Assembly (NCBI GenBank): GCA_963698035.1
Contig: OY969114.1
Location: 690,001-722,000, forward strand
Length of the DNA stretch: 32,000 nucleotides
Direction of reading: 5' to 3'
Origin: Candidatus Saccharimonadota bacterium
GTDB taxonomy: Archaea > Micrarchaeota > Micrarchaeia > Micrarchaeales > Micrarchaeaceae
The notes below the pieces were generated by a model. The model saw only the letters and a list, made by a program, of their open reading frames with translations, made no database searches and had not been told where the DNA came from. Position numbers and translations under genes: made by a program. Of this stretch, positions 6,001 through 28,735 are shown in pieces (position 1 is the first letter of the stretch; each line of letters starts with the position of its first letter).

Positions 6001-7534
6001 CTGATATAACTGGGGCCGTTAATGGAGAAGTGGTGACTGTCACTGTTGCTGTTATAGGAAGACTTGTGCTTTCATTAGCCTCAAGAGTTCCAGAGTTCTG
6101 TGTCGCCGAACTGTAGTATCTTACATATGCGCAGTAAGTAGTAGTGGTGCTAGGTGATACTGTAAATGTGGTCTGGTGGGCATATTTTTGGCTGCCGTCA
6201 CCAAGTGAAGATGATGCGACGATTGAATTTGTTCCTAATGACGAACCTGTTTTATCACATGCGCTGGTGCTCGAACTTTTGAATAGAATTACGCTATAAG
6301 AGGTAGCAGAGTCTGCCCATGCCACGGTTAGTACCGTAGAGGACCCCGAATCAATTGTAGTGCCTGAAATACCTGGAGGAGTGCCTGAGAATATTCCAGA
6401 GGGCCAGTCAACAATAAGCACTGCAGATGCAGAACTGTTGTCTCCAAGGTTTGCAGCATCGGCGGCAGTGAATGTCACATTGTAAGTACCGTCACTGAGG
6501 ACGAATGAACAACCCCTTGAATCAGGGCCGAGAGTCTCTCCCCTTGTAAGGGTCAGATTGCTAATTCCGGTATAACTTGTCGATTGGGAGGATGACCATG
6601 TGCAGGAAGTTGCTGTTCCGTTTGTATATGTTCCGTTAACTGACCAGGAAAGGTCGTATGTGCCGCTTGGAGATCCGGTTGCTGTTCCGTTAAATATGGC
6701 GCTTCCTGTAGTATTAGTTATAATAGGGGGATTCAAGTTAACCGACAATCCAGCTAGTACTATGTCCAGTGTGAATCCATCATCAACTACTGTGGTGCCT
6801 GAAGCATCCGTCACTTCTATCTGGAATAGGTATTTTCCTAATGACATTGAAGGTGTTACTGTGACAACGCACGGGGCCACCACTCCAACAGACTGGCTAT
6901 TTCCCGAGCCGCAGTCTACCGCAGGTGCGGGCGTGCTTCCATTGTAGCTTTCAAGCCACTGGTAAGTATAGGGCGGAGTTCCACCACCTGCGCCGTTGTC
7001 CTGAATGGTTATTGTAGTGATTTGTCCCTTCACTACTGTGTAGTTTGTTACATTTTCGGTTGCACTTGCTCTTGTTATTTTAGCGTAAGGATCAGATATG
7101 CTCAAAGGCTGGAAGGCTGTAGAATTAGAAACATTGAAAGCATTTGTTATTGTGCTTGCTGCCGATGTGCTTTCTGTTGTTGTGCTTGTTGCTGAAGATG
7201 TCTGATTGTTATTTACTGTCTGGTTGCTATTTACTGTCTGATTGCTACCTGCTGTCTGATTATTATTTACTGTGATGGTCGGCAGAGTCGTCTGGTTTAC
7301 CGTAGTTACCGTTGTTGAGGTGCTTGTTGTAGACAATGTTGTGTTCGATGCTGTATTGTTAGGTGCCGCCTGGAAGCTTAGCATTGCGCTGCCGCCAGCT
7401 GTCAATGTCTGGGGAACATGGATACTCGCTATGAATATTCCCAGGCCTGTTATGAGTATTCCTAGGAATAGTAATGAGGACAGAAATAGTACCGAACGTC
7501 TGCTTTTTCCCCCGAACAAAATAATGACCCCCAC
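1..7534 (-). CDS. Giant secreted/cell-surface protein, 3' end beyond the left edge (>2,500 aa in window). It has an N-terminal signal/TM anchor, an Asn-x-Thr/Ser-rich linker, roughly two dozen ~88-90-aa Ig-like beta-sandwich repeats and one non-repeat insert.
   Basis: Hand translation of the minus strand in frame with GTG 7534 stayed open everywhere I checked (7534-6830, 5401-5190, 4918-4320, 2278-1980, 58-2). N-terminus: (M)GVIILFGGKSRRSVLFLSSLLFLGILITGLGIFIA. Repeats read like PTISISPSSQAEDVGQTVTLTASVTNPGSGTPVITWYNDTSGAVLTGQTGSTFTLTAGATTGTFNYYAVVTDSNGGTGQSNTGSAVVSAT and GGTPPYTYQW. The + strand carries only short fragmented ORFs. An in-frame TGA lies 14 codons upstream of the GTG. Alternative start TTG 7519, preceded by GGGGGTCA. 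Confidence 0.85.
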   Translation of the reverse strand, partial: MGVIILFGGKSRRSVLFLSSLLFLGILITGLGIFIASIHVPQTLTAGGSAMLSFQAAPNNTASNTTLSTTSTSTTVTTVNQTTLPTITVNNNQTAGSNQTVNSNQTVNNNQTSSATSTTTESTSAASTITNAFNVSNSTAFQPLSISDPYAKITRASATENVTNYTVVKGQITTITIQDNGAGGGTPPYTYQWLESYNGSTPAPAVDCGSGNSQSVGVVAPCVVTVTPSMSLGKYLFQIEVTDASGTTVVDDGFTLDIVLAGLSVNLNPPIITNTTGSAIFNGTATGSPSGTYDLSWSVNGTYTNGTATSCTWSSSQSTSYTGISNLTLTRGETLGPDSRGCSFVLSDGTYNVTFTAADAANLGDNSSASAVLIVDWPSGIFSGTPPGISGTTIDSGSSTVLTVAWADSATSYSVILFKSSSTSACDKTGSSLGTNSIVASSSLGDGSQKYAHQTTFTVSPSTTTTYCAYVRYYSSATQNSGTLEANESTSLPITATVTVTTSPLTAPVISASPTAIDSGQSSTLSTTTSFGGGTSTYTCQWLEEAPNAGAYSDLDSSFTTGCTTTSKPTISTGTLSTSGTWKFELQVTDSTPKTVTSAPVSVTVNPTLSVSVAPPSPIIDSGQTQLLTADPSGGSGTYSSYSWYQTTCSGTPLQTGTSASYTTTALTSTTSYCVKVTDSLSGTATGSDVVTVNPTLSVSVAPPSPIIDSGQTQLLTADPSGGSGTYSSYSWYQTTCSGTPLQTGTSASYTTTALTSTTSYCVKVTDSLSGTATGSDVVTVNPQITITGAIAPSSAVIGQPISLSATSASGGNGHYTTEQWYLSSGTNSSGTLVGVGGSLSATDTESTVGTYYYYLVVSDGNTTTQAITPVFTVTVNPAKIIDVTMTVTNDEDSGNFGYWALDNYVKTIIVWQTGPNTFNANVTYDGTWQTFAGALSPGYEVTEPADGSGPMIANYNAVFTGTLLTTPTESTTGDLGSFNFGGTEADILLGTYGLQSGDASATNWVSFYFENADSIYDGFYSDPSQFTYTYTGYPLITETFVNAFAAPSSGDIVTYLPPTVAISPSSAILDIGQSQLMTLAPYGGTGTYTSYGWSDSVTSGSCTSFPISSTASTYTFVPTTGQANCVFSFTATVTDSGLVTSVASSPSVITVDPALNVPTVHSSATYDVGQTAAALYADDGSADSNPGLTYTWYTGDSSCSSVSLSPSIGTGLTYTPSTGSASTTNYCASVTDGTDAAAVYSTTPATVMVNPDPSILTEPTSVTVDQGQTDTISSTVQYGTGPYTWQWYDGSGPISGAFGTGTTATYSAPSTDTGLYVTFTDSVTETATSSPTVSVTVNPTPAVTLASQYTAVDSGQTDVFTATITQPGTGSDTYTWTLPGVVIPVSGCTSSSSTCTIAPKVSTQTLEQVSVAIKDSAPTPVTSSPASPASVTYNPLPAVSVKSQYLIIDQGQTDVFTATGTPGTVPLTYSWKVPSGLTITSGCTTSNTCTVTGTATIPSTYSVSVTVTDSSPAGAKTSSPSSAPLEVNPDPTVSVSPTGPLTYDVGQTASSLTATVAYTGPNTASVKWYSSSTSSCSASSANTGHSGPTYTPSTTTVGTTYYCAVVSDSGVSGYTSASNAVEVIVSATPTISISPSSQAEDVGQTVTLTASVTNPSSGTPVITWYNDTSGAVLTGQTGSTFTLTAGATTGTFNYYAVVTDSNGGTGQSNTGSAVVSATPTISISPSSQAEDVGQTVTLTASVTNPGSGTPVITWYNDTSGAVLTGQTGSTFTLTAGATTGTFNYYAVVTDSNGGTGQSNTGSAVVSATPTISISPSSQAEDVGQTVTLTASVTNPGSGTPVITWYNDTSGAVLTGQTGSTFTLTAGATTGTFNYYAVVTDSNGGMGQSNTGSVTVTQKPTVTVSPPSQFEDVGQPVSLSATVTNTGSGGDSYQWYNGSLSTPISGQTGLTYSTTAGATGTFNYFIVVTDSNLGTGQSNTGSVAVSPTPTISISPSSQTEDVGQTVTLTATVGNAGSGTDTITWYNDTSGAVLTGQTGSTFTLTAGTTGTFDYYAVVTDSNKGTGTSGTALVTVSDLPTITASTTTPAVDTTQLISLSSTTTNIGSGGDSYQWYNDSGSTPVAILGATSPTYSTTAVAIGTFNYYIVVTDSNKGTGTSGIVSVIVNPALYVKPITVSHSNVDQGQLSVLTADAGGGTTPYSYQWFEQPGNTDAWNLISGATGSSQYIFVTNATTPIGNWEFSALITDNGIPPESVNKTTLSGVSVYLQLSATASASPTKISPGNTTVLTVNIVGGNSPNECQWYEESPGSAIFMPISGATNCQTYNFVTAPGTQQGNWQFMVQVTDTGTTVPDTINSKTTTVTVGQFGVTLGSSSYPLAIDSGQTETLTATITGGVAPYTLTWTGSGTGSCTTSTSSKTVTCNIAPTAVNPTTFPYSVSVTDSAVNSSLGSVDVVVEPAPTATFAPMYSVSDTGEVETFLIGIDGGAGPFHVVLYNDTNTINTPTAYSTTI
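1861..2660 (-). repeat. Three tandem in-frame 270-bp units (90-aa Ig-like domain) that are almost identical
   Basis: Units start at 1861, 2131 and 2401. I found only two single-base differences by eye (1878 a vs g at the equivalent 2148/2418; 2566 t vs c). The block diverges after 2660. More diverged copies of the same unit extend left to about 1040, e.g. tcctgatgttccagtgcctttgttagagtcggtcac at about 1058 and about 1331. Confidence 0.9.
5193..5720 (-). repeat. Two tandem in-frame 264-bp units (88-aa domain), identical by eye
   Basis: 5193-5456 and 5457-5720 read identically base for base. They encode ...GGSGTYSSYSWYQTTCSGTPLQTGTSASYTTTALTSTTSYCVKVTDSLSGTATGSDVVTVNP. Confidence 0.9.
7201..7272 (-). 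repeat. Four 18-bp tandem units encoding NQT-type N-glycosylation sequons in the N-terminal linker
   Basis: tctgattgttatttactg / tctggttgctatttactg / tctgattgctacctgctg / tctgattattatttactg. The minus-strand translation is ...VNNNQTAGSNQTVNSNQTVNNNQTSS... Confidence 0.8.
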
Positions 7535-7585
7535 GGTCTTATGCTTGAATACTTGCTCTAAGCTTGCAAGGCATCAATTCATCAT

Positions 7586-8612: not shown

Positions 8613-8654
8613 CACTAAGCTATTAAAATACAATTGACAATTAAAAGGGATATT

Positions 8655-9140
8655 ATGAAATTTAAAGGCATGACTATAGAAAAACTAAAAGCCAAAGACC
8701 TGCCCAAAACTTCCAAGTTCGTACAAAACATAATCAACTCCCTTACTGTATACAACAAACAAGCCAGGGCTGTGTTTTCAAAAGAAATGTCTCCTAGCGG
8801 TTTGCGCAGAGAGCTTAAATACGGAACGCCTTTTGTAGTAAAGAACAAAAACGGCGAAATAATTGGGTTTTCAAATTATTACCCATCAGCTTCAGGAGTA
8901 GGATGGTTCGACTGGATCCTAATAGGCGGCTCTAACAGGAGAAAAGGTTTGGGTACTGCGCTATCGAAATACGTTCTTGCCTTTGCAAAGCGGCATGGAG
9001 AGCATGCGGTATGGCTGGATTCCCGCATTAACAATCACAAATCCATAAAACTGGCTAAAAAGCTCGGTTTCAAGAAGCTTGGAACATTCAGAAAGGCTTG
9101 GTATAAACAAGATTACTATCTTTGGCACAAAAACATCTAA
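8655..9140 (+). CDS. GNAT-family N-acetyltransferase
   Basis: Acetyl-CoA-binding motif RRKGLGTAL and KLAKKLGFKKLG. Start moved to ATG 8655 because the TATA-like TATTAAAATA at 8621-8630 is only 4 nt upstream of the track start TTG 8634. Confidence 0.8.
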   Translation: MKFKGMTIEKLKAKDLPKTSKFVQNIINSLTVYNKQARAVFSKEMSPSGLRRELKYGTPFVVKNKNGEIIGFSNYYPSASGVGWFDWILIGGSNRRKGLGTALSKYVLAFAKRHGEHAVWLDSRINNHKSIKLAKKLGFKKLGTFRKAWYKQDYYLWHKNI

Positions 9141-9150
9141 GTTATTCCCC

Positions 9151-9190
9151 CCTCATCCCCTGGGCTTGGGAGGCTTGGGACTTGGCTAGC
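9151..9190 (+). repeat. G-rich post-stop spacer element (GGGCTT family)
   Basis: CCTCATCCCCTGGGCTTGGGAGGCTTGGGACTTGGCTAGC, between convergent stops at 9140 and 9199. Confidence 0.5.
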
Positions 9191-9198
9191 TTCGAAGC

Positions 9199-9828
9199 TT
9201 AGTACTTCTTCCATTTCCCTTCAGAAATAACCTTTATTCTGCCATTAATATATACAATTCCTGAATTGTCGTCGAGTGCATACAGGCTGCCCTCTACTCT
9301 TTTTGCAGCCTTCCTAAGATATCTATCTCTTAATTTAGGAAAATAGGGAGAGTTAAAATGCGAGCGCACGTTAAAATCTATATAGCCAAGTCCGGCAGGT
9401 GTGGTCCTTTTCTCTTCTCTATACAGGAACTCAGAACTTGAAAAGAGCCTTTTTGCTGTGATTATGCTACCTGCACTTATACCAACGTATATCCTATTCC
9501 TTAATAGAGCTGGAAGCTCTCGCTTTAAGCCAGATTTTATCACCCAGCTCATAAGATATCTTGTATCCCCTCCCCCAACAACAATGACGTTAGCCTCCTT
9601 GAGTCTTGGTAGCCATATTTTCTTGTTTAATGCTGAGATGTCTACTATGTCAACGGGGCCGAGCTTCTCGCATTCGTTATAATTTTTAATGAGCCAGTCC
9701 TTCTCGTCCTCTGTTACGTTTGCCGCTGTGGGTATGAACGCGATCCTTATCTTCCCTTTCACCATCCTCTTTAGCGCGGTAGCCAATGACCTATTCGTAA
9801 TCCCTGCGGAAGTTAAAAGTAATTTCAT
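9199..9828 (-). CDS. Peptidase family S51 (peptidase E / cyanophycinase-like)
   Basis: MKLLLTSAGITN..IAFIPTAA..VVGGGDT..VGISAGSII (nucleophile elbow). ATG 9828 is preceded by GGTGAGAAGGAAG; the track start TTG 9846 is less likely. Confidence 0.75.
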   Translation of the reverse strand: MKLLLTSAGITNRSLATALKRMVKGKIRIAFIPTAANVTEDEKDWLIKNYNECEKLGPVDIVDISALNKKIWLPRLKEANVIVVGGGDTRYLMSWVIKSGLKRELPALLRNRIYVGISAGSIITAKRLFSSSEFLYREEKRTTPAGLGYIDFNVRSHFNSPYFPKLRDRYLRKAAKRVEGSLYALDDNSGIVYINGRIKVISEGKWKKY

Positions 9829-9902
9829 GAACTTCCTTCTCACCAAAGCCTTAAAACCCTTTCAAACCTCCTGGGACCTAGCTTGCGTCCTTGCTCAAGG
9901 GC

Positions 9903-9917
9903 CCAGGGGCTTGGACT
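9903..9917 (+). repeat. G-rich post-stop spacer element (GGGGCTT)
   Basis: CCAGGGGCTTGGACT. GGGGCTT at 9906-9912 is 5 nt from the stop at 9918-9920. Confidence 0.5.
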
Positions 9918-10373
9918 TTAAGGCTTGAGCTTCCTACTCATCCAGAAAAAAGCATTTCCCTTTTTGAATCCCTGCTTTCCAGCGAACCTTATGGCCGTCT
10001 TGTCTTTTGCGTTGGCCCAAAGGTAAATGTAGTTCACGCCTCTTTGCTTCAACCTGCGATAGGCCTCGGAGTGGAGCATTTGTGCAACGCCCATGTGCCT
10101 GTACTTTTTAGGTATCGCTATGTAGACAAAACATGCCACGCCATTTGGCCTGCGCGTATCTGAGCTTTTGGTATTCGCATAGAAAAAACCTACCGGGGTC
10201 TTCCGGTCCTCCGCAACAAGAAATATGCCGGACGGGTTCTTTATGGACCATTTGAACTCCGAGGTGTTCATGAATGGCTCGTCATTGTTCACTTTCAGCT
10301 CTGGAATCCCCAATCCAATCTTATATAGCGCGCCGAAATCTTTCATTGTTGCAGTGCGTATTTTGATTGACAT
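9918..10373 (-). CDS. GNAT-family N-acetyltransferase
   Basis: VYIAIPKKYRHMGVAQML...AGKQGFKKG, a typical GNAT core. Only 8 nt separate it from the next GNAT. Confidence 0.8.
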   Translation of the reverse strand: MSIKIRTATMKDFGALYKIGLGIPELKVNNDEPFMNTSEFKWSIKNPSGIFLVAEDRKTPVGFFYANTKSSDTRRPNGVACFVYIAIPKKYRHMGVAQMLHSEAYRRLKQRGVNYIYLWANAKDKTAIRFAGKQGFKKGNAFFWMSRKLKP

Positions 10374-10381
10374 AACATCAA

Positions 10382-10837
10382 CTATCTCAAATCCTTAATG
10401 AAAACAAACGCATCAGTATTTCCCCAAAGCCTTTTGACATATCCAGCTTTCTTGAATCCGTGCTTGATGTTGTATTTGTAGGCGATCCTGTTGCCGACAT
10501 CCTCTTCCCCTACAAGTTTCCTAATGCCATTCTTCTTTGCCAGTACAATCAGCCTTTCCATCAAGGCAGATCCCAGGCCAAGCCTTCTGTACTTCGGCTT
10601 TATGTAAACGTCTTCAATGTGCCAATGCCTGCTCCATATGCTTCCATAGACAAGATAGCCGACAGTTACACCATCGACAATTGCAACAAGGGTCTTTTTT
10701 CCCTTGATGCGGTCTTTTACATACTCCTCTCCGAACTTTGGGTTTTCCTTCCACCAATCAAGCCAGGCCGTCTTGCTCAGTTTCTCTAGCTGCGCGAAAT
10801 CTCTTGCTGTAGCATATCTGATACTTACCTTTTGCAT
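10382..10837 (-). CDS. GNAT-family N-acetyltransferase
   Basis: IEDVYIKPKYRRLGLGSALMERL...KHGFKKAG. Its own TATA (minus strand AAAAGCATAAATAAAC, 10856-10871) lies about 29 nt upstream of ATG 10837. Confidence 0.8.
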   Translation of the reverse strand: MQKVSIRYATARDFAQLEKLSKTAWLDWWKENPKFGEEYVKDRIKGKKTLVAIVDGVTVGYLVYGSIWSRHWHIEDVYIKPKYRRLGLGSALMERLIVLAKKNGIRKLVGEEDVGNRIAYKYNIKHGFKKAGYVKRLWGNTDAFVFIKDLR

Positions 10838-11279: not shown

Positions 11280-11360
11280 ATCCTTCTACCTCACTATAAT
11301 ATTAAATTCCTTTCGACCTCGCCGTACCGTCATGCATGCTCGGCCCGGCCCCATCGCCTA

Positions 11361-11392
11361 GCGGGCGCCCCTCTCCGGATCTAGGGGCTTAG
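11361..11392 (+). repeat. G-rich post-stop spacer element (long form)
   Basis: GCGGGCGCCCCTCTCCGGATCTAGGGGCTTAG. It shares GGGCGCCCCTC...GGGGCTTA with 11915-11944. Confidence 0.55.
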
Positions 11393-11403
11393 GATTCTAA
11401 TGC

Positions 11404-11914: not shown

Positions 11915-11944
11915 CCTGGGGCGCCCCTCCCAAGCTGGGGCTTA
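11915..11944 (+). repeat. G-rich post-stop spacer element (long form)
   Basis: CCTGGGGCGCCCCTCCCAAGCTGGGGCTTA. The final TTA is the stop codon of the 11942-12934 gene. Confidence 0.55.
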
Positions 11945-12934
11945 CGTTTCCACCATCTCCTGCCTGAAATCTTCCACTATGCTTGGCTTGCTTGGTCTGA
12001 CCAAAGCTGCCGGTCCTGCAACATCAGTTATTGCAAGATATACAATCTCTGTAACTTCGGTTGTATTGCGTCCCTCTTCCACTTTTTCTTCACCGTCATA
12101 TCCAGAGACATGAAAACGCTCTCCGACAACAATTCTATTTCTAGCCTCTTTATTTAAATTGACGTTTATCGGTTCCCATCCTCTACTTCGATCTGCGGAT
12201 CCCTCCATCCTGCCTGTTTTGTCTATATGATAGATGTTTCCAGATTCGGTTCTAAAATAGACTGCCTCTATCTCCCCGTTTAATAGTGCATCAAGTCTAA
12301 AGTCTGCTACGCTTACCTTAGGCAAAGTCTTTTCAGCTTCATTTTCTGGTCTTTTTCCTCTCAAATGTGCAGAAGCGGGTTTCTTTGGAGTTTTTCCTCC
12401 TCCTGGTTTTTGATTGGGACCTTCTTGATCTACTAAAATCACCAATCCGGCTCCATAATCATCTACAATCTTTCTCTGTTTCACAGCTTCGGCCCTTGGC
12501 GCTATGCCGAGGTCGGCATAGAGCTCCATGAAGAATGCCGTAACATCTGTCCTTGCATACCTTATATCAGGATGCATGTATGTAATGCTCCCTTTCATCT
12601 CATCGTCAAGTCTTTTTGCAAACTCATTAAAACTACCTTGTCCCTCAGCATACTTTAGTATGGAAAGCGCATCTATCTGTCTTCCAGAGTACTCTCTACC
12701 TATTCTTTCCGCGGTTGCCCTGTGCTCCGACTTAAACATTTCGTTTATGGTATCTTTTAGATCTGGCACATCCGGCATTTTTGGTATTTCGCCAGCATCC
12801 ATTGGAACGCCTGGTAACAGATACACCCTCATCTTTCTTCCTGTAAATCTTTCGTCAGAAGAGACCGAACTCATTCCTACATCAATGTATCTTACTGTAA
12901 TCCCACCTCTCTGTTCCTTTTGTATCTGTGGCAT
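11942..12934 (-). CDS. Hypothetical protein (330 aa), two globular halves joined by a Lys/Pro/Gly-rich linker, no family recognised
   Basis: Clean ORF with a consensus BRE/TATA 38 nt upstream. Linker QEGPNQKPGGGKTPKKPASAHLRGKRPENEAEK. Confidence 0.6.
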   Translation of the reverse strand: MPQIQKEQRGGITVRYIDVGMSSVSSDERFTGRKMRVYLLPGVPMDAGEIPKMPDVPDLKDTINEMFKSEHRATAERIGREYSGRQIDALSILKYAEGQGSFNEFAKRLDDEMKGSITYMHPDIRYARTDVTAFFMELYADLGIAPRAEAVKQRKIVDDYGAGLVILVDQEGPNQKPGGGKTPKKPASAHLRGKRPENEAEKTLPKVSVADFRLDALLNGEIEAVYFRTESGNIYHIDKTGRMEGSADRSRGWEPINVNLNKEARNRIVVGERFHVSGYDGEEKVEEGRNTTEVTEIVYLAITDVAGPAALVRPSKPSIVEDFRQEMVET

Positions 12935-12960
12935 AACATCACAAAGCCCTTCACTTTATC

Positions 12961-12977
12961 CAGATATTTATAGCTTT
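12961..12977 (-). promoter_or_regulatory. BRE/TATA box
   Basis: The minus strand reads AAAGCTATAAATATCTG. The TATAAATA starts 38 nt upstream of ATG 12934. Confidence 0.6.
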
Positions 12978-13009
12978 CTGGGAGGTTCACGAGGCAGAGA
13001 GGCCTAGCA

Positions 13010-13119
13010 ATCCCCTCCAGTCTAGCCCTTGTGCGGTTCTATTGGCCAGGCTTGGTTGGGAGGTTCTATATGTGGTGTATATATCCGAGACTTTCAAGGC
13101 TGGTTGGGTTTATCTTGCC
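13010..13119 (+). repeat. Intergenic element R2, right copy of the diverged direct repeat (partner at 8039-8172)
   Basis: TGGTTGGGAGGTTCTATATGTGGTGTATATATCCGAGACTTTCAAGGCTGGTTGGGTTT aligns to R1 at about 74% identity with one 1-nt gap, in the same orientation. Confidence 0.7.
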
Positions 13120-13236
13120 CGAGCTTTGCCGCAAAGTCCGCTGCAGCGGCCGAGCAGCCTGCGAAACGGTTAAAATGCTATATTATTATTGTTATATGCC
13201 ACATGGCTTTTTGTTTTCACCCAACCAGATGGTAAT

Positions 13237-13872
13237 ATGCAGCATAAGACCAATACAATACGCAACAGGACGCTGTGGAACAGGGGCGTAGGGCACCTCT
13301 CCAGGAGCGACCGTGTTCTTGCTAGGGTCATAAAAAAGGTAGGCCCCATAAAGGTCGATCCGCCAGATGACTATTACGAGCACATCGTTGGCTCAATAAT
13401 ATACCAGCAGATATCGGGCAGAGCCGGCGACTCGATATTGAAGAAGTTCAGGAGCCTCTACAACGGCAGGATACCATCGCCAAAGAGGTTCCTGGCCACT
13501 CCCGAGAAGAAGGTCAGGGGCGCGGGCGTATCACCGCAGAAGTACTCCTACCTCGTGGACCTCTGCACAAGGATACAGGATGGAAAGCTGGAGCTCAGCA
13601 AATTTGAGAGCATGGATGACGAGGACATAATAGAGGAGCTGGACGAAGTGCGAGGAATAGGAAGGTGGACCGCAGAGATGTTCCTGATGTTCAGCCTCGG
13701 CAGGACCAACATAGTGCCCAGGGATGACCTGGGGATAAAGAACGCGATAATGAGGGTGTACGGGCTCAAGTCGCACCCGAGCGGCAGCAAGTTCTCAGAA
13801 CTCGCAGAGAAGTGGACGCCCTACGGCACGATAGCCTCCCTCTATCTCTGGAGAAGCGTCGATGATCGGTAG
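13237..13872 (+). CDS. alkA: HhH-GPD DNA glycosylase, AlkA / 3-methyladenine glycosylase II-like
   Basis: Helix-hairpin-helix LDEVRGIGRWTAEMFLMF followed by the catalytic-Asp region VPRDDLGIKNA. ATG 13237 preferred over the track start 13189. Confidence 0.75.
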   Translation: MQHKTNTIRNRTLWNRGVGHLSRSDRVLARVIKKVGPIKVDPPDDYYEHIVGSIIYQQISGRAGDSILKKFRSLYNGRIPSPKRFLATPEKKVRGAGVSPQKYSYLVDLCTRIQDGKLELSKFESMDDEDIIEELDEVRGIGRWTAEMFLMFSLGRTNIVPRDDLGIKNAIMRVYGLKSHPSGSKFSELAEKWTPYGTIASLYLWRSVDDR

Positions 13873-14225: not shown

Positions 14226-16598
14226 CTAGGCCTTCGGCTCCACCGACTTAACCCCGTTGCCGTTCGCCTTGGCATCCGAGAATGAGATCTTCTCCGCTTT
14301 CGCCGCTTTCCTGATCTCCTCCAATGCGTTCTGGTCGAGCGCGTCGCGCGATTTGGTGAACAACACCATCTCCTTCAAGTCGCTGTTCAGGGGCATGCCT
14401 TTGTCGTGCCTCATCTTCCTTGCCTCGACAAGCATCCTCGCGCCCAGCTCTCCTGCCTGCGATAGCTTCGAATTGAACGCCATCTGGCCCGGCCATTCCG
14501 ATATGTGTATCGACTTGGCGCTTCCGAGGCCCTCCTTGCCTGCGAAGCCTGATTGGTAGAGCTCCTCGGTTATGAACGGCATGAACGGGGCGAGCAGCTT
14601 CAGGTAGTTGAGGAAGACGACGTTCACAGTATGCTTTGCGGCTGCATCGCCATCATATACCCTCGACTTTACGAATTCGAGGTAGTCGTTAGCGAACTCC
14701 CAGAAACCCTCTTCAGATATCCTCCTCGCCGAGAAGTAGTCGAACTCCTCGAACTTAGCGGTCGCCTCGCTGACAACGGACTGCAGCCTTGAGAGTATCC
14801 AGTTGTCGAATATGCTCTGGCTCGGTGCGCCTGCCACAGACTGGACCTGCGCAGCCTGCTCTATGAACCTTGCCAGGTTCCACATCTTGTTGACCAACCT
14901 CTTCCCGGTCACCAGCGCCTTCTCCTCAAAAAGAGTGTCGAGCCCGAGCACGGATGAGCTCGCCCAGTACCTTACCGGGTCTGCGCCGTATTTCTCCAGG
15001 TACTGCTCGGGACCGGATGCTGATGTAGACTTGTGCATCGGGCTGCCGTCGGGGTTGAGCCCATGCCCGGATATCATGATGCTCTTCCAGGGAATATTGC
15101 CGGTATGGAAATAAGACTTTACAACCGTGGTGAACGCCCAGAACGTTATTATGTCGTGCGCCTGCGGCCTGAGGTCCATTGGGAGTATCTTCTCCATGTA
15201 TTTTCCGTCGGTGGCCCACCTCGCGTTTATCAGGGGGGTCAGCGATGATGTCGCCCACGTGTCCATCGTGTCTGTCTCGGGCGTGAAATCAGAGGAACCG
15301 CACTTGCAGCTCTGCCCCGGCTTGTGGACGAAGGGATCTACGGGCAGCTCGCTCTCCTGCGCGAATGTGGGCTCGCCGCACGCCTTGCAGTACCAGACAG
15401 GGAAGAGCACGCCGAAGTATCTCTGCCTCGATATGCACCAGTCCCACTTGAGGCCGTTTATCCAGTTCTCGAAGCGTATCCTCATGTACTGCGGGTACCA
15501 GGTTATCTGCTGTCCCATCTCGATGAACTTCTCCTTCAGGTCGAGATATTTTATGTACCACTGCGGCTTCACTATGAACTCCACCTTTGTGCCGCACCTG
15601 TCGTGCACATTTGCCACCTGGCTTATCTTCTCCTCCTTCAGGATGAGGCCCCGCTTCCTCAGGTCCTCCACAATCTTGGCGCGTCCCTCGTCTATCGCCA
15701 CTGTCCCATAATACGGGTGATCAAGCCTCCCATCTTTGTTTATTATTATCCTGAGCTGCAGGTTGTACGACTTGTACCACTCTATGTCGGTCTGGTCGCC
15801 GAAGGTGCAGCACATGACTATGCCTGTGCCGAACTCTTTGCTTACCCTGTAATCGGAAAGCACCCCGACCTCCGTCTCGAATACCGGTATCTTTATTTTC
15901 CTTCCGACCAGCGGCTTGTACCTTTCATCGTCGGGGTTTACGAATATCGCGACGCAGGCAGGCAGCAGTTCGGGCCTCGTAGTCGCGATGGCAACATCGT
16001 CTGCGAACCTTATCGTGTATATAGTGGCGTCGAAGTCCCTATCCTCCAGCTCCATCTGGGATATCGCGGTCTTCTCATTGGGGCAGTATATCACCGGCGC
16101 CTCTTTCCTGTAAATCCTCCCAATTTTCAGCAGCTCGAGGAAGGACTTCTGCGATGCCCTCTGGACGTCATCACTCATGGTCTGGTAGAGGAGGCTCCAG
16201 TCTGCAGAGATGCCGAGCCTCTGGAAGAGCTCTATGTACTTCTCGTTGTACGGGGCAATCTCCTTCTTCACCAGCTCGACGAACCGCTCCCTGCCCTCCT
16301 TCTCCGAGGTGGTGTTGAATATCCTCTCTATCAGAAGCTCGGTAGGCAGCCCATTGTTGTCTAGTCCGAAGGGGAAGAACACATTGAAGCCCCGCATCCT
16401 CTTGTATCTCGCCACGAATTCTGACTGGGAATACGAGAAGACGTGCCCCAGGTGGATGTCGCCCGACACAGTGGGGGGCGGCGTGTCTATCGCATATACC
16501 CTCTTTGTGCCGTCCGGGTCGAAATCAAATATACGGTTGTCTGCCCAGAACCTGCGTATCCTTTCCTCTGTTTTTGCATGGTCGTAGTTCTTGTCCAT
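14226..16598 (-). CDS. valS: Valyl-tRNA synthetase (archaeal type)
   Basis: IDTPPPTVSGDIHLGH (HIGH motif), WDWCISRQRYFG, and PMHKSTS...YGADPVRYW (KMSKS region). ATG 16598 (MDKNYDH) preferred over 16622. Confidence 0.88.
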   Translation of the reverse strand: MDKNYDHAKTEERIRRFWADNRIFDFDPDGTKRVYAIDTPPPTVSGDIHLGHVFSYSQSEFVARYKRMRGFNVFFPFGLDNNGLPTELLIERIFNTTSEKEGRERFVELVKKEIAPYNEKYIELFQRLGISADWSLLYQTMSDDVQRASQKSFLELLKIGRIYRKEAPVIYCPNEKTAISQMELEDRDFDATIYTIRFADDVAIATTRPELLPACVAIFVNPDDERYKPLVGRKIKIPVFETEVGVLSDYRVSKEFGTGIVMCCTFGDQTDIEWYKSYNLQLRIIINKDGRLDHPYYGTVAIDEGRAKIVEDLRKRGLILKEEKISQVANVHDRCGTKVEFIVKPQWYIKYLDLKEKFIEMGQQITWYPQYMRIRFENWINGLKWDWCISRQRYFGVLFPVWYCKACGEPTFAQESELPVDPFVHKPGQSCKCGSSDFTPETDTMDTWATSSLTPLINARWATDGKYMEKILPMDLRPQAHDIITFWAFTTVVKSYFHTGNIPWKSIMISGHGLNPDGSPMHKSTSASGPEQYLEKYGADPVRYWASSSVLGLDTLFEEKALVTGKRLVNKMWNLARFIEQAAQVQSVAGAPSQSIFDNWILSRLQSVVSEATAKFEEFDYFSARRISEEGFWEFANDYLEFVKSRVYDGDAAAKHTVNVVFLNYLKLLAPFMPFITEELYQSGFAGKEGLGSAKSIHISEWPGQMAFNSKLSQAGELGARMLVEARKMRHDKGMPLNSDLKEMVLFTKSRDALDQNALEEIRKAAKAEKISFSDAKANGNGVKSVEPKA

Positions 16599-16680
16599 AG
16601 CCGCACCGGGCAACGCATGCAATCAAGGAATGGGATACTACGAATAAAAAGGTTGCTTTGCACTCTAAATACCTCTTCCA

Positions 16681-22420: not shown

Positions 22421-22796
22421 GATACTTGTGTTCGGGAATTTACTGTTGAAGAACGACAGCATGCCCCTGCGACTAATTAGCAATCTTGCAAAAGAATTCC
22501 CATACATAGAGTTTAAGGCGTTTGATCCGAACGAAAACATGGAAAATGAGGGGAGAGAGATGAATATCATAGACACCGTAGAAGGTATAGAAAAGGTCAC
22601 GCTTATCACCGATATAGATTCGATAAAAATCAATCGTATACTGACAATGCACGACTTTGACCTTGGATACAATCTGAAGCTTCTAAAAAAGCTCAATTAC
22701 ATCGATAGAGTGATGGTATTCGGGGTGCCGATGAAGATTAAAAAAGAGGAAGCGCTCAGGCAGCTCAGGGAACTAATCAACGCCAATTTATCTTAA
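22398..22796 (+). CDS. [NiFe]-hydrogenase maturation endopeptidase (HycI/HybD/FrhD family)
   Basis: KILVFGNLLLKNDSMPLRL, NIIDTVEG and TMHDFDLG match the conserved acidic/acidic/His metal-binding positions. Overlaps the EamA gene end. Confidence 0.7.
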   Translation: MAIEKRHKILVFGNLLLKNDSMPLRLISNLAKEFPYIEFKAFDPNENMENEGREMNIIDTVEGIEKVTLITDIDSIKINRILTMHDFDLGYNLKLLKKLNYIDRVMVFGVPMKIKKEEALRQLRELINANLS

Positions 22797-24066
22797 GGAA
22801 GTGGCTTGCGCAGCTCATGCACGGGTCGTACGCCCTTATCACTTTCTCTATCTCGTACTCTATCTGTTTCTTATCCTTATCAAGGTTCTGCTCCACAACC
22901 TGGCCTACGCTTTTTTCCATGCAGATCTGGTTCTGCTGTGTCGGCACTATTATCCTTCCGTCCACTACCTTCCCCGCATTGTCTATGTCAAGCATGTAGT
23001 ATAGTGTGCCCCTTGGCGCCTCCAGGAGCGCAACACCCTTCCCCGCCCCGATCTTCACAGGGGCCGCATTCTCCTCCTTGAAATCCACCGTCTCAAGGGT
23101 CTCGATGGAGCTGTCTATGCAATTGAGTACCTCTATAGCCTGTGCAAGGTTGTTATGGTAGATGTTCTTTGATGGAAATGCCCCAAGGTACTCCTGCACG
23201 TCGCCTTTCGTGTCCTTGTGCAGGCTCTTTTTGTTCAGGTTCATCCTCGCCAATGCGCCGACTATGAATTCTTCCCCTTCGAATTCGTATCCGGCGGCCT
23301 CGGAATAGGGTATGATCACCTGCTTCAGGTAATCCATATACTCATTTTCCTTGATGCTCTCGCCTTTTGAGTCCTCCACATGGCCGCCTATGAAGGAGTA
23401 GTCGTCATTTATCAAAGATACGAAATTTGTATCACGCTCAAGGCGGAAACCGCAGTTGTAGAATATTCCTATGAAATCTAGGGCATGCCCCCTGGCATCC
23501 TTGAGCTCCTTGATGGTGGCGTCAACCACCTCCTTTGTGGGAATGTGCGCAAACCTTCCAACTTCCGCGAACGTTGCGTGTATGGCCCTGCCCGCTATCG
23601 CCTTTGAAAGGTTGTTCCCAGCGCTCTTAACTTCGAATGCATTCCTAATCAATTCCTGCTGCGAATCATCAAAATCGAGAACAGAGTCCTTGCCGTAGAT
23701 GTCAGGCAGGCAGAACAGGTACAGATGCATGGCATGGTCGCGTATCATCATGCCGTTCATCGATAGTTTTCTTAGCGTGATCGTCTGGTCGCTCGGCACA
23801 TAACCAAAGGCCCTCTCGACAGCTTCAGAACAACAAGAGAGGTGCGCGATGCTGCAGGTCCCGCATATCCTCGACGTCATTGTCGGCAGCGCGATTGCGG
23901 ACTTGCCCCTTATCGCCTGTGTGTAGAACCTTTTGCTTTCCAGGATCTTGAGCTTGACATATTTCACCTTATTATCCTCTATCTTGATGGCCAGGCTACC
24001 ATGGCCCTCGATCTTGGAAATGTTATCAAGTCTTATATCATCAGTACTATGCACCCACAACACCAA
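22777..24066 (-). CDS. [NiFe] hydrogenase large subunit (group-3-like)
   Basis: N-terminal motif RICGTCSIAH and C-terminal DPCMSCASH, followed by the 7-aa tail FLKINWR. ISKIEGHG near the N-terminus. 429 aa. Confidence 0.88.
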   Translation of the reverse strand: MVLWVHSTDDIRLDNISKIEGHGSLAIKIEDNKVKYVKLKILESKRFYTQAIRGKSAIALPTMTSRICGTCSIAHLSCCSEAVERAFGYVPSDQTITLRKLSMNGMMIRDHAMHLYLFCLPDIYGKDSVLDFDDSQQELIRNAFEVKSAGNNLSKAIAGRAIHATFAEVGRFAHIPTKEVVDATIKELKDARGHALDFIGIFYNCGFRLERDTNFVSLINDDYSFIGGHVEDSKGESIKENEYMDYLKQVIIPYSEAAGYEFEGEEFIVGALARMNLNKKSLHKDTKGDVQEYLGAFPSKNIYHNNLAQAIEVLNCIDSSIETLETVDFKEENAAPVKIGAGKGVALLEAPRGTLYYMLDIDNAGKVVDGRIIVPTQQNQICMEKSVGQVVEQNLDKDKKQIEYEIEKVIRAYDPCMSCASHFLKINWR

Positions 24067-24535
24067 ATTCTTTCAAATATTTGTCTAGTATTTTCAGGAA
24101 CATGTCCTCTTCCATAGGGCAGCCCTCAACCACATCATCGACCTGCACTATCTCGCCGACCTTCCTGACTTTATCCGTCTGCTTGAATCGTTTTATCAGG
24201 AACTCTACCTCATTTTTGAGTTCGTCATTGAACACGTTCCTCTGTGCAGCCGGCATGCCGTTGATTGCGCAGGAGCCAATGGCGACCAATTTTTTCGAGT
24301 TCTTCCTTATCTCTCTCAGTTTTCTCGCGTCGCTCTCTGTTGTTATCGCGCCCTCCACAAACGCAACGTCAATGTCTTCCAGCACGTTGTTCTTCTTGAG
24401 AACCCTTGCGTGCTTTATCTCAATAAGGTCCTTCCACTTGAAGAAGTTCTGGTTCATCAGCTCTATCCAGACCATGGTGCTGTCCTCGCAACAGGTAAAG
24501 GAAAACCATCCAATCTTCAGCCTCTTCTTCTCCAT
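24047..24535 (-). CDS. [NiFe] hydrogenase small subunit, short form (proximal-cluster domain only)
   Basis: KIGWFSFTCCEDS ... AIGSCAINGMP ... VEGCPMEE. ATG 24535 (MEKKRLKIGWF) is preferred because TTTATA at 24559-24564 lies about 29 nt upstream (leaderless). The track start is 24592. Confidence 0.8.
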   Translation of the reverse strand: MEKKRLKIGWFSFTCCEDSTMVWIELMNQNFFKWKDLIEIKHARVLKKNNVLEDIDVAFVEGAITTESDARKLREIRKNSKKLVAIGSCAINGMPAAQRNVFNDELKNEVEFLIKRFKQTDKVRKVGEIVQVDDVVEGCPMEEDMFLKILDKYLKEFGVVGA

Positions 24536-24558
24536 AATATGAAATGTTGTCAAAACGC

Positions 24559-24564
24559 TATAAA
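24559..24564 (-). promoter_or_regulatory. TATA box of the hydrogenase structural operon
   Basis: The minus strand reads GGTTTATAGCG, about 29 nt upstream of ATG 24535. Confidence 0.45.
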
Positions 24565-24637
24565 CCTTCGCACGTTCATAAGAAGCATACAAATGTGAAC
24601 CACAATCGTTTTAAATTACAACTACCCATTCCAACAT

Positions 24638-25613: not shown

Positions 25614-25738
25614 CCCTGTTATCTCGTATGGGAAAGCCTCCCGATTGCTTATTCTGCAGGTCGTTTTAACTTCTAGGGAGTTCCCAGCGACTGGTTCACG
25701 AATCCAAATATATTATTTTTCGTTTCTTTTTGTCTCAT

Positions 25739-28735
25739 ATGAATTTCCAAAGATTTAAATATGTGGCTGCATTAATCCAATCCATGGGGTTGAAGGCGAC
25801 AGAAGTCGTACCTCTTCGAGCAGAGGCTCAGGTTGTACCTCTTCCTGTGCATGCAGTTCAGCAAACTTCTTTTGAAAACCATGCGGGCTCTCAAACCAAA
25901 CTTATCAGGATCTGGTCGGTAGGACCTTCCGGAGGGGGTACGGATTACTTCGGCAGAGACAACATGATTGGCCTGTCAAGCTTCCTGAGGGACCGGATAT
26001 CAAACGGGGCAGCGCCCCATCTAATAGCGCAGAACGGCGGGATACTTCCAGAGATTCCGATGTTCGTAACAAGGGGCGGGATGCACAAGCTGCTTGCGCT
26101 TGAGGGGTTCGTCTCGACGCTCGATGAGGCGGTCGTCGCGACCAAGCCCTATTTCAGCAGGATGATGGACCAGTTGAACAGGAGGGACCTTGACACCCAG
26201 ATAGCATACATAATGGATCAAAGCGACACCCAGAACATACTAAGGGAATATGATCTTGTAATAATGGCGTTCAAGACCGCGCCAGAGCAGTTGCTCACAA
26301 TGAGGAGCAAATACGGGAGCCTTACAGAAGATCTCGAACTGAAAATAAGTAGCATAGAGGAAACCAAGCAAAAGTACCGGGGCGAGCTCGAACGTCTGGA
26401 GGAGAAGATCGCGAAATTGCCGGGAAGCGAGCATCCCGTGCTGCAGAAAGGCGTGGGCAACTACAAGAGGGACATAAGGCGGATGGGAGAGAAGGTGGCC
26501 GAGATAGGGGAAGAGCGCCAGGACTACGGGGGCATACTTGATCTGTATACAGACCTGTTCAAAATGTGGATAAAAGACAACAACATAACCAACATACACG
26601 TGCTGGAGGATAAGTTTGGTGACTTAATACTTGATGATTACGACCTTTACAAACAATGCGAGAAGGAGTGCAAGAAGGTGCGCAAAGAGGCCGCTGTGGA
26701 GTGGCAGAAGAGGATCGATGAGGACATGGCGGCGTACAGGAAGAAGATAGCGGAGATCGACAAGGACGACCCGATCCAGAGCGCGAGGCTAAAACACCTG
26801 ACCGAGCTGGTGCAGGGGCTGGGCAACGTAAAGACAAAGCTTGAGCACCGGGGGTTGGATAAGGCAAGAGAGGAAGCCGAGCGGGAGGCGCAAAAGGGGA
26901 TAGAGTCGACGTCGCACATCACGCACAATATAGCAGGCACGAAAATGCTCGCTGATCTCGCGAACCGCATAGCGCTCGACACGATAAAGGCGAACATAAG
27001 GGACGTTTATGGAAGGAGACGAACCATACAGATAGTTGACGAAAACTCAGCAGTTGTGGATGTAAAGGGCCTCCACGTAAAGCTGACCAACAAACCCTCA
27101 AACACATCCGGGATGTTTACCAAGGATGACAGTAGGGAGCTTGGAAGGCTGTTGGCGCTGAGCAGGGGCGAGCAGTTCTCAATGGTGATTGGCGCAAGAA
27201 GCGCATACGGCAGGTACACCATAGTGCCGGTGCAGAATGGCAGCGAGGACTTCATACACCTGGTGACAACGCCGCCGTTCATAGATAGAAAGGCGGGGAA
27301 GGGGGTTTGGAACAGGAAGATAAAAACGGCTTTCACGGAGGCCATTGGCAAGGGCAACATGAGCTCGGGTTTCGACCAGCTTGACTACAACCCCAGTAGC
27401 GGCCACGTAAAGCACACATTTATTACCTCCGAGTACATGGGAGTGTGCGCGGACAAGGAGAAAAGAAGGCAGGCGATGACGCTCGCAAAGGAGATAAGGG
27501 AGCTCGTGCCCTGGGAGCCCCCGGACGGCTATGTGATGGACGCTCGGGACAGGCTTCACGTAACACACAAGCTGCCGAGCGAGCTCAGGAAAAGGGAGTG
27601 GATGACAATACTGCTGTTACATGCCGGCGTAGACCCCGACGACACCAAGCTGAGAAAGCGGCTTGCCGATCACATAGAGCACCTCAAGTTCGATAGCGAC
27701 GATAAAAAGCTTGCGGCACCGCTTGCACTCCTCTCAAAATACATAGAACCATCGGGGGCGCCGTTGCACACTGCCGAAAAGGTCTCGTTCCTGATAGTGG
27801 CGGACCAGCACGTCGGATACCCCGGTATCGGAGTTTCGCAACTCGACCTGTTAAGGGCGCTGACAGCTTACGTGAAGGACAACGTGAAGACGCCGTTCTA
27901 CTTGGTGCTGCTCGGGGACAACATCGAGGGCAAACACCGATACATCCAGAACGAGATAAATGCCGAGAACGACCCGACAAACATGTACGAGTATGCAAAG
28001 TTCCTCAGGGTGAACGGGATACCTAAAACTGATTCAAGGTTCGAGGCAGAGATGGACAAATACCGCGCCCAGCTGCAGAAGAAGGCGCCGATCCCGTTCC
28101 TGGATAAGCAGCCAGACATATTCGCCAATGAGATAGCAGAACTTGCGAAACTGGCTGCCGGAGTGCTAATAGTCTCAGGAAACCACTGGAACAAGACATT
28201 CAAGGAAAAGGACATGACAGAAGCCGGAGTCCTCAAGCGCGCGATAGACGCGGTCCTGCCGGAGCACATGAGGGGCAAGGTTAAGATAGTGGACAGGGGC
28301 GGCGGCGACTACGGATGGGGGACCGCAAAGCTCGGGGATGCCCCGCAGATAAGGCTTTCCCACAAGGGCACGCCGGAAGACCTGGTGGCAAAGCTCAACG
28401 CGCCGGAGTGGCTGCAGATGAAGGCAGACCTGCACAAGCACGAAGACCAGGTCATAGATAACCGCTTTGTGGTGACAGGGTTGCACGGTCAGGGAGAAAC
28501 TACGTACGCACAGTCGATATACATACCGGTGAGCCCCTCACTCCGGGGAGCATCATTCGTTGAGATGACCTACAGCAACGTAACCAAGATGCCGCTCGCT
28601 TTCTCATCGGAAGCCATCACGATACCCGAGCTGAAGCAGAGAGGCTATCTCAAGGAGAGCCAGCAGATAAGAGCGTTCGAACACCTGTTGACGACCCCAG
28701 AACTGCCGCTCAAGAAGATGACCGTGAAGGTATAG
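25739..28735 (+). CDS. Large (~1,000 aa) protein: coiled-coil N-terminal half with degenerate ABC/SMC-head-like strings, and a C-terminal calcineurin-like metallophosphoesterase (Mre11/SbcD-like motif set)
   Basis: Residue numbers follow the track ORF. MPE motifs: ADQH (692-694), LLGDNIE (729-730), SGNHW (817-819), LSHKG (878), LHKHE (902-904). Charged heptad-like segments at about 196-262 and 306-390. ATG 25739 is preferred because AAATATATTA lies about 30 nt upstream. Confidence 0.75.
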   Translation: MNFQRFKYVAALIQSMGLKATEVVPLRAEAQVVPLPVHAVQQTSFENHAGSQTKLIRIWSVGPSGGGTDYFGRDNMIGLSSFLRDRISNGAAPHLIAQNGGILPEIPMFVTRGGMHKLLALEGFVSTLDEAVVATKPYFSRMMDQLNRRDLDTQIAYIMDQSDTQNILREYDLVIMAFKTAPEQLLTMRSKYGSLTEDLELKISSIEETKQKYRGELERLEEKIAKLPGSEHPVLQKGVGNYKRDIRRMGEKVAEIGEERQDYGGILDLYTDLFKMWIKDNNITNIHVLEDKFGDLILDDYDLYKQCEKECKKVRKEAAVEWQKRIDEDMAAYRKKIAEIDKDDPIQSARLKHLTELVQGLGNVKTKLEHRGLDKAREEAEREAQKGIESTSHITHNIAGTKMLADLANRIALDTIKANIRDVYGRRRTIQIVDENSAVVDVKGLHVKLTNKPSNTSGMFTKDDSRELGRLLALSRGEQFSMVIGARSAYGRYTIVPVQNGSEDFIHLVTTPPFIDRKAGKGVWNRKIKTAFTEAIGKGNMSSGFDQLDYNPSSGHVKHTFITSEYMGVCADKEKRRQAMTLAKEIRELVPWEPPDGYVMDARDRLHVTHKLPSELRKREWMTILLLHAGVDPDDTKLRKRLADHIEHLKFDSDDKKLAAPLALLSKYIEPSGAPLHTAEKVSFLIVADQHVGYPGIGVSQLDLLRALTAYVKDNVKTPFYLVLLGDNIEGKHRYIQNEINAENDPTNMYEYAKFLRVNGIPKTDSRFEAEMDKYRAQLQKKAPIPFLDKQPDIFANEIAELAKLAAGVLIVSGNHWNKTFKEKDMTEAGVLKRAIDAVLPEHMRGKVKIVDRGGGDYGWGTAKLGDAPQIRLSHKGTPEDLVAKLNAPEWLQMKADLHKHEDQVIDNRFVVTGLHGQGETTYAQSIYIPVSPSLRGASFVEMTYSNVTKMPLAFSSEAITIPELKQRGYLKESQQIRAFEHLLTTPELPLKKMTVKV

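Follow-up and report, generated by a model that had tools for sequence, protein, structure and literature searches.

What is encoded by the long open reading frame (ORF) at positions 25730..28735 (+ strand) of the 32,000-nucleotide stretch of contig OY969114.1 (contig positions 690,001 to 722,000) that we analysed and refer to as the window? Read from a TTG at 25730 the frame specifies 1001 amino acids, and from an ATG at 25739 it specifies 998; residue numbers below follow the longer version. The original prediction for this gene saw a Rosetta-stone fusion between an ATPase-dead Rad50/SbcC head and an Mre11/SbcD-type phosphoesterase. This fusion is contradicted by the evidence assembled here and is not supported. 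Predicted structures and family alignments point to another arrangement, which we consider very probable: a metallophosphoesterase (MPE)-like domain that has lost its metal site and is split by helical hairpins of about 260 residues, a helical linker of about 115 residues, and a second MPE domain whose motifs are those of a live enzyme.

The ORF is real, and cannot be a chance frame because it has both a full-length homologue and a family of relatives. Among 5.8 billion proteins, a word-indexed search returned one homologue, of 948 amino acids, which is 34% identical over 94% of the window protein. HMMER, run exhaustively over 1.84 billion cluster representatives, returned 73 relatives at E <= 1e-3, each representing a cluster at 50% identity, and 41 of them had E < 1e-30. 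These relatives are mostly 850-1,100 amino acids long and nearly all align end to end. Column counts given below refer to an alignment of 47 family members, whose mutual identity is only about 20-40%. The word-indexed search repeated with this alignment gave no match, probably because coiled-coil words dominated it.

An intact metallophosphoesterase domain in the C-terminal third

Conserved motifs, Pfam matches of homologues, an AlphaFold2 model and Foldseek searches together confirm the C-terminal third, as predicted, to be an intact calcineurin-like MPE domain (residues 681-965; 27770..28624, + strand). The motifs follow the canonical superfamily order DxH / GD / GNH[DE] / H / GHxH: motif I is D692-x-H694, motif II G729-D730, motif III G817-N818-H819, motif IV H878 and motif V D900-x-H902. 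The set of ligands for a dinuclear metal site is complete (D692, H694, D730, N818, H878, D900 and H902). Residues D692, G817, H819, E831, H878 and H902 are invariant in 47/47 members, and conservation reaches at least 90% at H694, G696, G729, D730 and N821. Position 818 is Asn in 38/47 members and Gln in 7/47; the residue that follows the motif III His is Tyr, Phe or Trp instead of Asp or Glu, so that the family reads GNH[YFW]N.

The motif set had been noticed in the original prediction, and its motifs I to IV stand. Motif V, however, had been placed at H902-x-H904, and H904 is a His in just 13/47 members; the conserved pair is formed by position 900, which is His in 28/47 members and Asp in 18/47, the window protein being one of the latter, together with H902. 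Two near-identical homologues, in the related loci L001 (6778..9624) and L002 (9926..12772), read GGHRHIHE and GGDRHIHE in motif V, respectively. Both His and Asp seem to be tolerated at the first position of this motif, as this pair mirrors.

Pfam Metallophos is matched by 15/47 homologues (best E 1.2e-10) and Metallophos_2 by 11/47. On such evidence the window protein would belong to the MPE superfamily by transitivity, through its homologues only. The AlphaFold2 model of residues 560-1001 has a mean predicted local distance difference test score (pLDDT) of 93.7 and a predicted template modelling score (pTM) of 0.89. With this model Foldseek found 94 matches in the PDB (E <= 1e-3), and the best 50 of the 94 all have the MPE fold. 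The top match among those listed is the small subunit DP1 of the archaeal DNA polymerase PolD (8ppt_A, E 4.3e-8); MjMre11 (4tug, E 7e-6), Vps29, Rv0805, purple acid phosphatases and 5'-nucleotidases are found further down. The label 'Mre11/SbcD-type' given in the original prediction therefore proves too specific: DP1 fits best, other MPE subfamilies score almost as well as Mre11, and neither the window protein nor its 47 homologues gave a significant match to Mre11/SbcD sequence models in Pfam and NCBIfam scans.

A helical insert between motifs II and III had also been noticed, with a length of about 85 residues, and it is borne out by the model (residues 736-810, with helices over 736-808; 27935..28159, + strand). 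It measures about 75-85 residues here and is kept throughout the family, with lengths of 55-113 residues. Upstream of the catalytic domain lies a linker that is helical in both AlphaFold2 models (residues 567-680; 27428..27769, + strand) and carries the conserved K614-L-P616-x-E618. Downstream, a C-terminal tail (residues 966-1001 and the stop codon; 28625..28735, + strand) has conserved residues L968, G972, I980, F983 and E984. We considered a PIP-box in this tail and dropped it, as I980-x-x-F983-E984 comes without the Gln and the second aromatic residue.

A predicted pseudo-metallophosphoesterase domain in the N-terminal half

Which fold precedes the linker? The AlphaFold2 model of residues 50-685 (pLDDT 91.8, pTM 0.87) has a globular part in two halves. 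The first half (residues 57-163; 25898..26218, + strand) runs as strand (59-64), helix, strand (98-101), two helices and strand (157-161); the second (residues 427-566; 27008..27427, + strand) is beta-rich over 433-566. We read this N-terminal half as an MPE-like domain because four independent and individually weak signals agree. They come from profile-profile alignment, from folds in the PDB, from folds in BFVD and from Pfam.

Aligned with hhalign, the family profile of residues 55-195 pairs with that of residues 680-830 such that KLIRIWSVGPSGGGT...PHLIAQNGGIL faces EKVSFLIVADQHVGY...PFYLVLLGDNI, with motifs I and II in register (probability 51-67%, pairwise E 5e-5 to 1.5e-4). A global alignment of the N-terminal with the C-terminal domain, both insertions being excised, has a probability of 27-38%; it pairs LD[DE]A (131-134) with the invariant DEA (830-832), N454 with H878 and R490 with D900. 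Among PDB structures, the leading globular match of the N-terminal model is SapH (3qfm, Foldseek probability 0.97, E 0.03), and the others are SoxB, a 5'-nucleotidase, a purple acid phosphatase and Mre11 (4fbw). The top match of any kind, the integrative YydD-YydB model 9a6c_B (E 0.018), aligns at a root mean square deviation (rmsd) of 22.9 Å. In BFVD, the viral 291-residue protein A0A1B1IWK9 aligns over both halves, across the insertion (E 5e-4, TM score 0.59 on the target, 521 columns), and several phage proteins annotated as 'DNA polymerase II small subunit', which is an MPE family, match with probabilities of 0.95-0.99 and rmsd of 5.6-6.4 Å. Finally, when N-domain-only sequences with the insertion excised were compared with Pfam, Metallophos was the sole family matched by more than one of them (2/25, best E 0.008).

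The canonical metal ligands are missing from this domain. A Gly-rich loop, G65-PSGGGT-71, occupies the position of MPE motif I (DxHxG), and G103-G104 that of motif II (GD). The position of the motif I Asp holds Glu in 26/47 members, Asp in 9/47, and Pro in the window protein; that of the motif I His holds Gly in 31/47 and His in just 2/47; that of the motif II Asp holds Gly in 23/47 and Glu in 14/47. Vestiges may be seen at N454, in place of motif IV (His in 9/47), and at R490, in place of the first His of motif V (His in 26/47). An intact ligand set is found in the N-terminal domain of 0/47 members. Residues 57-163 are nevertheless better conserved than any other part of the protein, and both the loop, as G-[ED]-h-G-G-G-T, and PPFxD at 515-519 are features of the family. 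Because the ligands are lost in all members while the first half is conserved best, we interpret residues ~57-566 as a constrained pseudoenzyme MPE domain with a Gly-rich loop at the former metal site, and we hold the predicted architecture as a whole to be highly probable. The two MPE-fold domains are most likely the product of an internal duplication. The original prediction had offered as its alternative that residues 57-120 were a decayed copy of the MPE N terminus; this idea is supported by the hhalign, Foldseek and Metallophos matches, and can be widened to residues ~57-566.

The helical insertion and the Rad50/SbcC reading

The two halves of the N-terminal domain are separated by a coiled-coil-like helical insertion of about 260 residues (164-426; 26219..27007, + strand), delimited with DSSP on the AlphaFold2 model. 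Its helices span residues 164-183, 185-229, 236-283, 304-342, 348-389 and 405-426 and are joined by short turns into helical hairpins, 185-229 pairing with 236-283 and 304-342 with 348-389. The longer helices, of about 45 residues, would measure roughly 65-70 Å if straight. The insertion varies from 137 to 349 residues over the family, and in the window protein its region draws weak coiled-coil matches in Pfam. These hairpins do not form the single long arm with an apex that had been proposed: of the supposed non-helical apex of ~40 residues between two charged arms, residues 263-305 are predicted to be helical.

Can residues ~55-530 still be a dead Rad50/SbcC ATP-binding cassette (ABC) ATPase head, with a zinc-hook coiled coil, fused to an Mre11/SbcD nuclease? 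The topology is superficially alike, with a globular lobe, long antiparallel helices, a second globular lobe and then an MPE domain, and a conserved Gly-rich loop directly follows a beta-strand. All the strings that had suggested a head are present (W62-SVGPSGGGTD-72, C310/C314, L477-SRGE-481 and H510-LVTTPPFID-519), as are those quoted for the catalytic domain, from D692-x-H694, G729-D730, G817-N818-H819 and H878 to H902-x-H904. The family columns, however, lend no support to the first group. In the loop taken for a Walker A motif with Thr replacing Lys (G65-P-S-G-G-G-T71), the Lys position is Thr in 30/47 members, Leu in 4/47, Ser in 3/47 and Lys in 3/47. The supposed zinc-hook cysteines both lie inside a predicted helix (304-320); the C310 column is gapped in 17/47 members and the C314 column in 44/47, no other Cys is among the commonest residues of the C310 column, and homologue P0001 has no Cys there. 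LSRGE, read as the ABC signature, is unconserved, with the G480 column gapped in 17/47. In HLVTTPPFID, read as a Walker B motif with its Asp-Glu replaced, positions 513-514 are variable with no Asp-Glu in the family, and just the following PPFxD is conserved.

Structures and sequence models agree with this. No family member matches an ABC/SMC head, and the globular part matches MPE folds instead. Chains of ABC transporters and of JetC/SMC proteins align with the N-terminal model in the PDB at rmsd of roughly 20-58 Å and probabilities of 0.04-0.15, through long-helix matches. A few relatives do weakly match SMC, RecN, Rad50, LmuB or JetC models, but those to SMC, RecN and Rad50 score well under their cut-offs, and the mapped NCBIfam matches sit on coiled-coil segments and not on heads (SMC_prok_B 246-505 of 1181; RecN 208-366 of 563), and they fall about 20-fold under the cut-off (27.7 bits versus 567). 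We regard the Rad50/SbcC head as scarcely credible. A reading as a defence system was rejected as well: in PADLOC a few members weakly matched LmuB, JetC, ZorA and DndD, which we ascribe to coiled coils by analogy with the mapped SMC and RecN matches, and the window protein matched nothing.

Proposed mechanism and alternative explanations

What could such a protein do? Our best explanation overall, to which we would give a probability of roughly 0.7, combines the pseudo-MPE/MPE tandem with a phosphodiesterase mechanism that we infer from it. The C-terminal domain would be a Mn/Fe-type phosphodiesterase. The well-conserved pseudo-active-site pocket of the N-terminal domain and the helical arm would form a substrate-binding, positioning or oligomerisation module, with a partner or a second copy of the chain as possible binding targets besides the substrate. 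In Mre11 two MPE domains act together as a homodimer, and the dead/live tandem may be the equivalent within one chain, imitating the Mre11/SbcD dimer in cis. As to the substrate, we tentatively favour a nucleic acid, the protein being a possible nuclease that acts without an ATPase partner, because DP1 and Mre11, the nearest structural neighbours of its catalytic domain, are nucleases and because it is large, with helical arms. One may go further and imagine a single-chain, ATPase-independent functional analogue of Mre11-Rad50/SbcCD in genome-reduced Micrarchaeota, with a dead/live pseudo-dimer as its head, a clamping or bridging arm, and a loop to grip the DNA backbone, or else a regulatory nucleotide; this we think quite unlikely.

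Several observations weigh against our explanation. Searches of Pfam, NCBIfam and PDB sequences with the window protein gave no significant match, just coiled-coil noise, and in Pfam it does not match Metallophos even at E <= 10. Its membership in the superfamily rests on motifs, homologues and predicted structure. For the N-terminal domain, Foldseek found no PDB fold match at E <= 1e-3, the profile of the domain with its insertion excised retrieved no MPE among PDB sequences (only chance endoglucanase matches, E 0.25), and the hhalign probabilities for an internal duplication are moderate at best. With regard to the substrate, the weak NCBIfam matches of the relatives are mostly to YaeI-type phosphodiesterases, not to nucleases, and genes of nucleotide metabolism found near several relatives (MazG, NUDIX, dTMP kinase, dUTPase) would suit a small molecule equally well.

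Would a small substrate then be the better choice? The same architecture might act on a small phosphodiester or pyrophosphate nucleotide, such as a cyclic or linear oligonucleotide, NpnN, a nucleoside diphosphate sugar or similar, with the pseudo-MPE pocket as an allosteric or second ligand site, and so be a salvage or signalling enzyme. The YaeI matches (8 members, best E 2.7e-4), together with others to LpxG and YfcE, fit such a role, as do the N-terminal domain's best PDB match, the Ap4A hydrolase/phosphodiesterase SapH, and the source name 'predicted phosphodiesterase' given to some members. The neighbours just mentioned also fit it: MazG in L001-L003; genes for dTMP kinases, a dUTPase and dGTP-diphosphohydrolase-like proteins in L008 and L009; NUDIX in L008 and L010. 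Yet about 1,000 residues with long helical arms are atypical of small-molecule phosphodiesterases, the catalytic domain is structurally nearest to the nucleases named above, and the context is weak, no neighbour being conserved family-wide. We consider a small-nucleotide substrate unlikely, although it is the main rival of the nuclease reading.

Alternatively, the N-terminal globular region could be an unrelated alpha/beta domain of a new fold, convergent with MPEs. The lack of a PDB fold match at E <= 1e-3 and of any MPE in the PDB profile search would be expected in that case, and so would hhalign probabilities of just 27-67%. Against it stand the in-register internal alignment of motifs I-II, the Foldseek MPE matches in two libraries (probability 0.95-1.0) and the Pfam Metallophos matches by N-domain-only sequences; the weak signals point to nothing but MPE, which makes a new fold improbable. 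It is also conceivable that no part of the protein is catalytic and that it serves as a scaffold, in the manner of Vps29 or of eukaryotic DNA polymerase B-subunits, its C-terminal motifs being kept for structural reasons only. Vps29 and the Pol alpha B-subunit are among the good structural matches, and one dead MPE domain is already present in the protein. However, all seven C-terminal metal-ligand positions are conserved across 47 members of such low mutual identity, which is the signature of a working site, and known MPE scaffolds have lost the metal-ligand residues. A scaffold is thus very improbable, and the tandem of a pseudo-MPE domain with a putative phosphodiesterase is the explanation we retain.

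Relation to known metallophosphoesterases and SMC-type proteins

How close is this tandem to known systems? Archaeal PolD DP1 is a 3'-5' proofreading exonuclease with an MPE/phosphodiesterase domain, and provides the best structural matches of the C-terminal domain among those listed (8ppt_A, 6hms_A, 5ihe). It has the same metal-ligand motifs, is with Mre11 the sole named family in weak PDB-sequence profile matches at motifs I-II, and its model is weakly matched by one relative (E 8.6e-5). Identity, however, is 12-14%. Moreover, DP1 has an OB-fold before its phosphodiesterase domain, whereas the preceding segment here (567-680) is all-helical; motif III differs as described above, the pseudo-MPE domain and the helical arm are extra, and none of the loci we looked at showed a DP2 partner.

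With Mre11/SbcD the protein has in common the MPE fold and a dinuclear metal site built from five motifs, and the structural matches include, besides 4tug, the complexes 3av0 and 5dny. Mre11/SbcD has a capping domain and Rad50-binding helices, whereas the ~36 residues that follow position 965 here are too little for both, and the Rad50/SbcC partner is absent from the 32-kb window and the nine related loci. Likeness to Rad50, SbcC and SMC proteins is limited to a coiled-coil-like composition and to a globular domain interrupted by long antiparallel hairpins of helices; there is no ABC-ATPase fold, Walker A or B motif, signature or zinc hook here, and hairpins replace one very long arm.

Vps29 and the Pol alpha/delta/epsilon B-subunits offer a precedent for a ligand-less MPE fold used in binding. 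They are separate subunits or proteins, whereas the present protein joins its dead copy in cis to one with intact motifs, and this dead copy has a Gly-rich loop at the old motif I position and an insertion of about 260 residues. As for YaeI, YfcE and the SapH/PrpE Ap4A hydrolases, these are single-domain proteins of ~180-300 residues, and all scores obtained here are far under the curated cut-offs.

The gene and its family

Where does the gene begin? Alignments start at about residue 57, and residues 1-56 (25730..25897) are unconserved in every homologue. Because these first ~55 residues are unconserved, the true start may be TTG 25730, ATG 25739 or a later Met; of the first two, ATG 25739 is likelier. 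A TATA-like A/T-rich box read from the sequence, AAATATATTATTTT (25706..25719, + strand), is centred ~27 nucleotides 5' of this ATG, which would be consistent with the gene having its own archaeal promoter and a leaderless mRNA.

The relatives for which a name is available come from Micrarchaeota, apart from one labelled Marsarchaeota, and the two GTDB genomes that carry relatives are metagenome-assembled genomes of Candidatus Micrarchaeota. No relative was found in metagenome scans or in the IMG/VR viral scan, and tblastn searches of phage and plasmid collections gave no match; because the IMG/VR, phage and plasmid searches were empty, nothing links the gene to a mobile element. The family is restricted to Micrarchaeota/DPANN, rare and uncharacterised. 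Members that are not called 'predicted phosphodiesterase' are labelled 'hypothetical protein' at the source. Two other names look like annotation errors: P0075 (865 amino acids), a member of the P0003 cluster, is a 'site-specific DNA-cytosine methylase' according to JGI/IMG, and a fragment of another family cluster is a 'gas vesicle protein'.

Gene neighbourhood

Is the gene associated with conserved partners? The original prediction described a stand-alone gene without herA or nurA neighbours, and this holds for the window and for nine related loci. In all nine, a non-coding gap of roughly 130-250 nucleotides precedes the gene, and no conserved operon partner was found over them. No Rad50, SbcC, HerA, NurA or DP2 gene was seen in the 32-kb window or in the nine loci. 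Among the sequenced relatives the closest are those of L001-L003, of which L001 and L002 are near-identical; in these three a DEAD helicase gene lies upstream and a MazG gene downstream. In L001 these are a DEAD-box helicase (5299..6570, about 422 amino acids, same strand) and a MazG-type pyrophosphohydrolase (9842..10186, 114 amino acids). We considered the two as general partners and rejected them, as neither flanks the gene in the window or in loci beyond L001-L003.

Elsewhere the surroundings change from locus to locus. L004 and L005 have an ABC transporter, DUF981 and DUF929; L007 has MoxR and VWA genes. In L008 and L009 we found dTMP kinases, a PRC-barrel protein, a tRNA-splicing endonuclease and RadA, with the dUTPase in L009. 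L010 has GHMP kinases about 6 kb upstream, and an MFS transporter and Sua5 downstream. A GHMP kinase is immediately upstream in L011 and immediately downstream in the window. L006, the locus of a distant relative, contains HypC and a [NiFe]-hydrogenase pair (11942..13652). The window also has overlapping genes for [NiFe]-hydrogenase large (429 amino acids) and small subunits (22777..24592, - strand; overlap of 20 nucleotides), about 1.1 kb upstream of the gene. This common hydrogenase pair may reflect residual synteny rather than a functional link.

The remainder of the window consists of ordinary cellular genes, including, besides the hydrogenase subunits and the GHMP kinase, those for AdoMet decarboxylase, a CBS protein, an HhH-GPD glycosylase, an epimerase and GNAT acetyltransferases. 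The product of a valyl-tRNA synthetase gene (14226..16622, - strand) is 100% identical to a database protein and has its nearest named relatives in Candidatus Micrarchaeota/Micrarchaeia, at 54-61% identity. At the left, a frame without stop codons (2..7573, - strand; at least 2,524 codons) runs off the end of the window; its Ig_3, I-set, Ig_7 and FN3-like repeats show that it encodes a giant protein of Ig repeats, presumably located at the cell surface and of a kind common in DPANN archaea. Three GNAT genes at 8634-9140 (+), 9918-10373 (-) and 10382-10837 (-) surround an S51 peptidase gene at 9199-9846 (-), the cluster extending over 8634..10837. It is followed by small ORFs on the - strand (10887-11829) and by a 330-residue ORF without a Pfam match (11942-12934). 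The G+C content is about 0.40-0.48 at 7-13 kb and steps up to 0.51-0.55 at 13-20 kb.

Significance

Targeted literature searches brought up no description of such a family or architecture, in which a dead MPE domain, interrupted by a long helical insertion, is joined in cis to a live one. Nothing here makes the family a categorically new system: it is a variant within the known MPE superfamily. Micrarchaeota carry a conserved and unannotated family of proteins of ~1,000 residues that is absent from Pfam as a family and whose structure is predicted with high confidence. The predicted pairing of a pseudoenzyme with an enzyme in one chain could provide a model for how MPE dimers are regulated or engage their substrates. 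The family is a candidate nucleic-acid- or nucleotide-processing enzyme of DPANN archaea, in which repair and salvage pathways are poorly known, and is a reasonable target for biochemistry, through expression followed by phosphodiesterase and nuclease assays.

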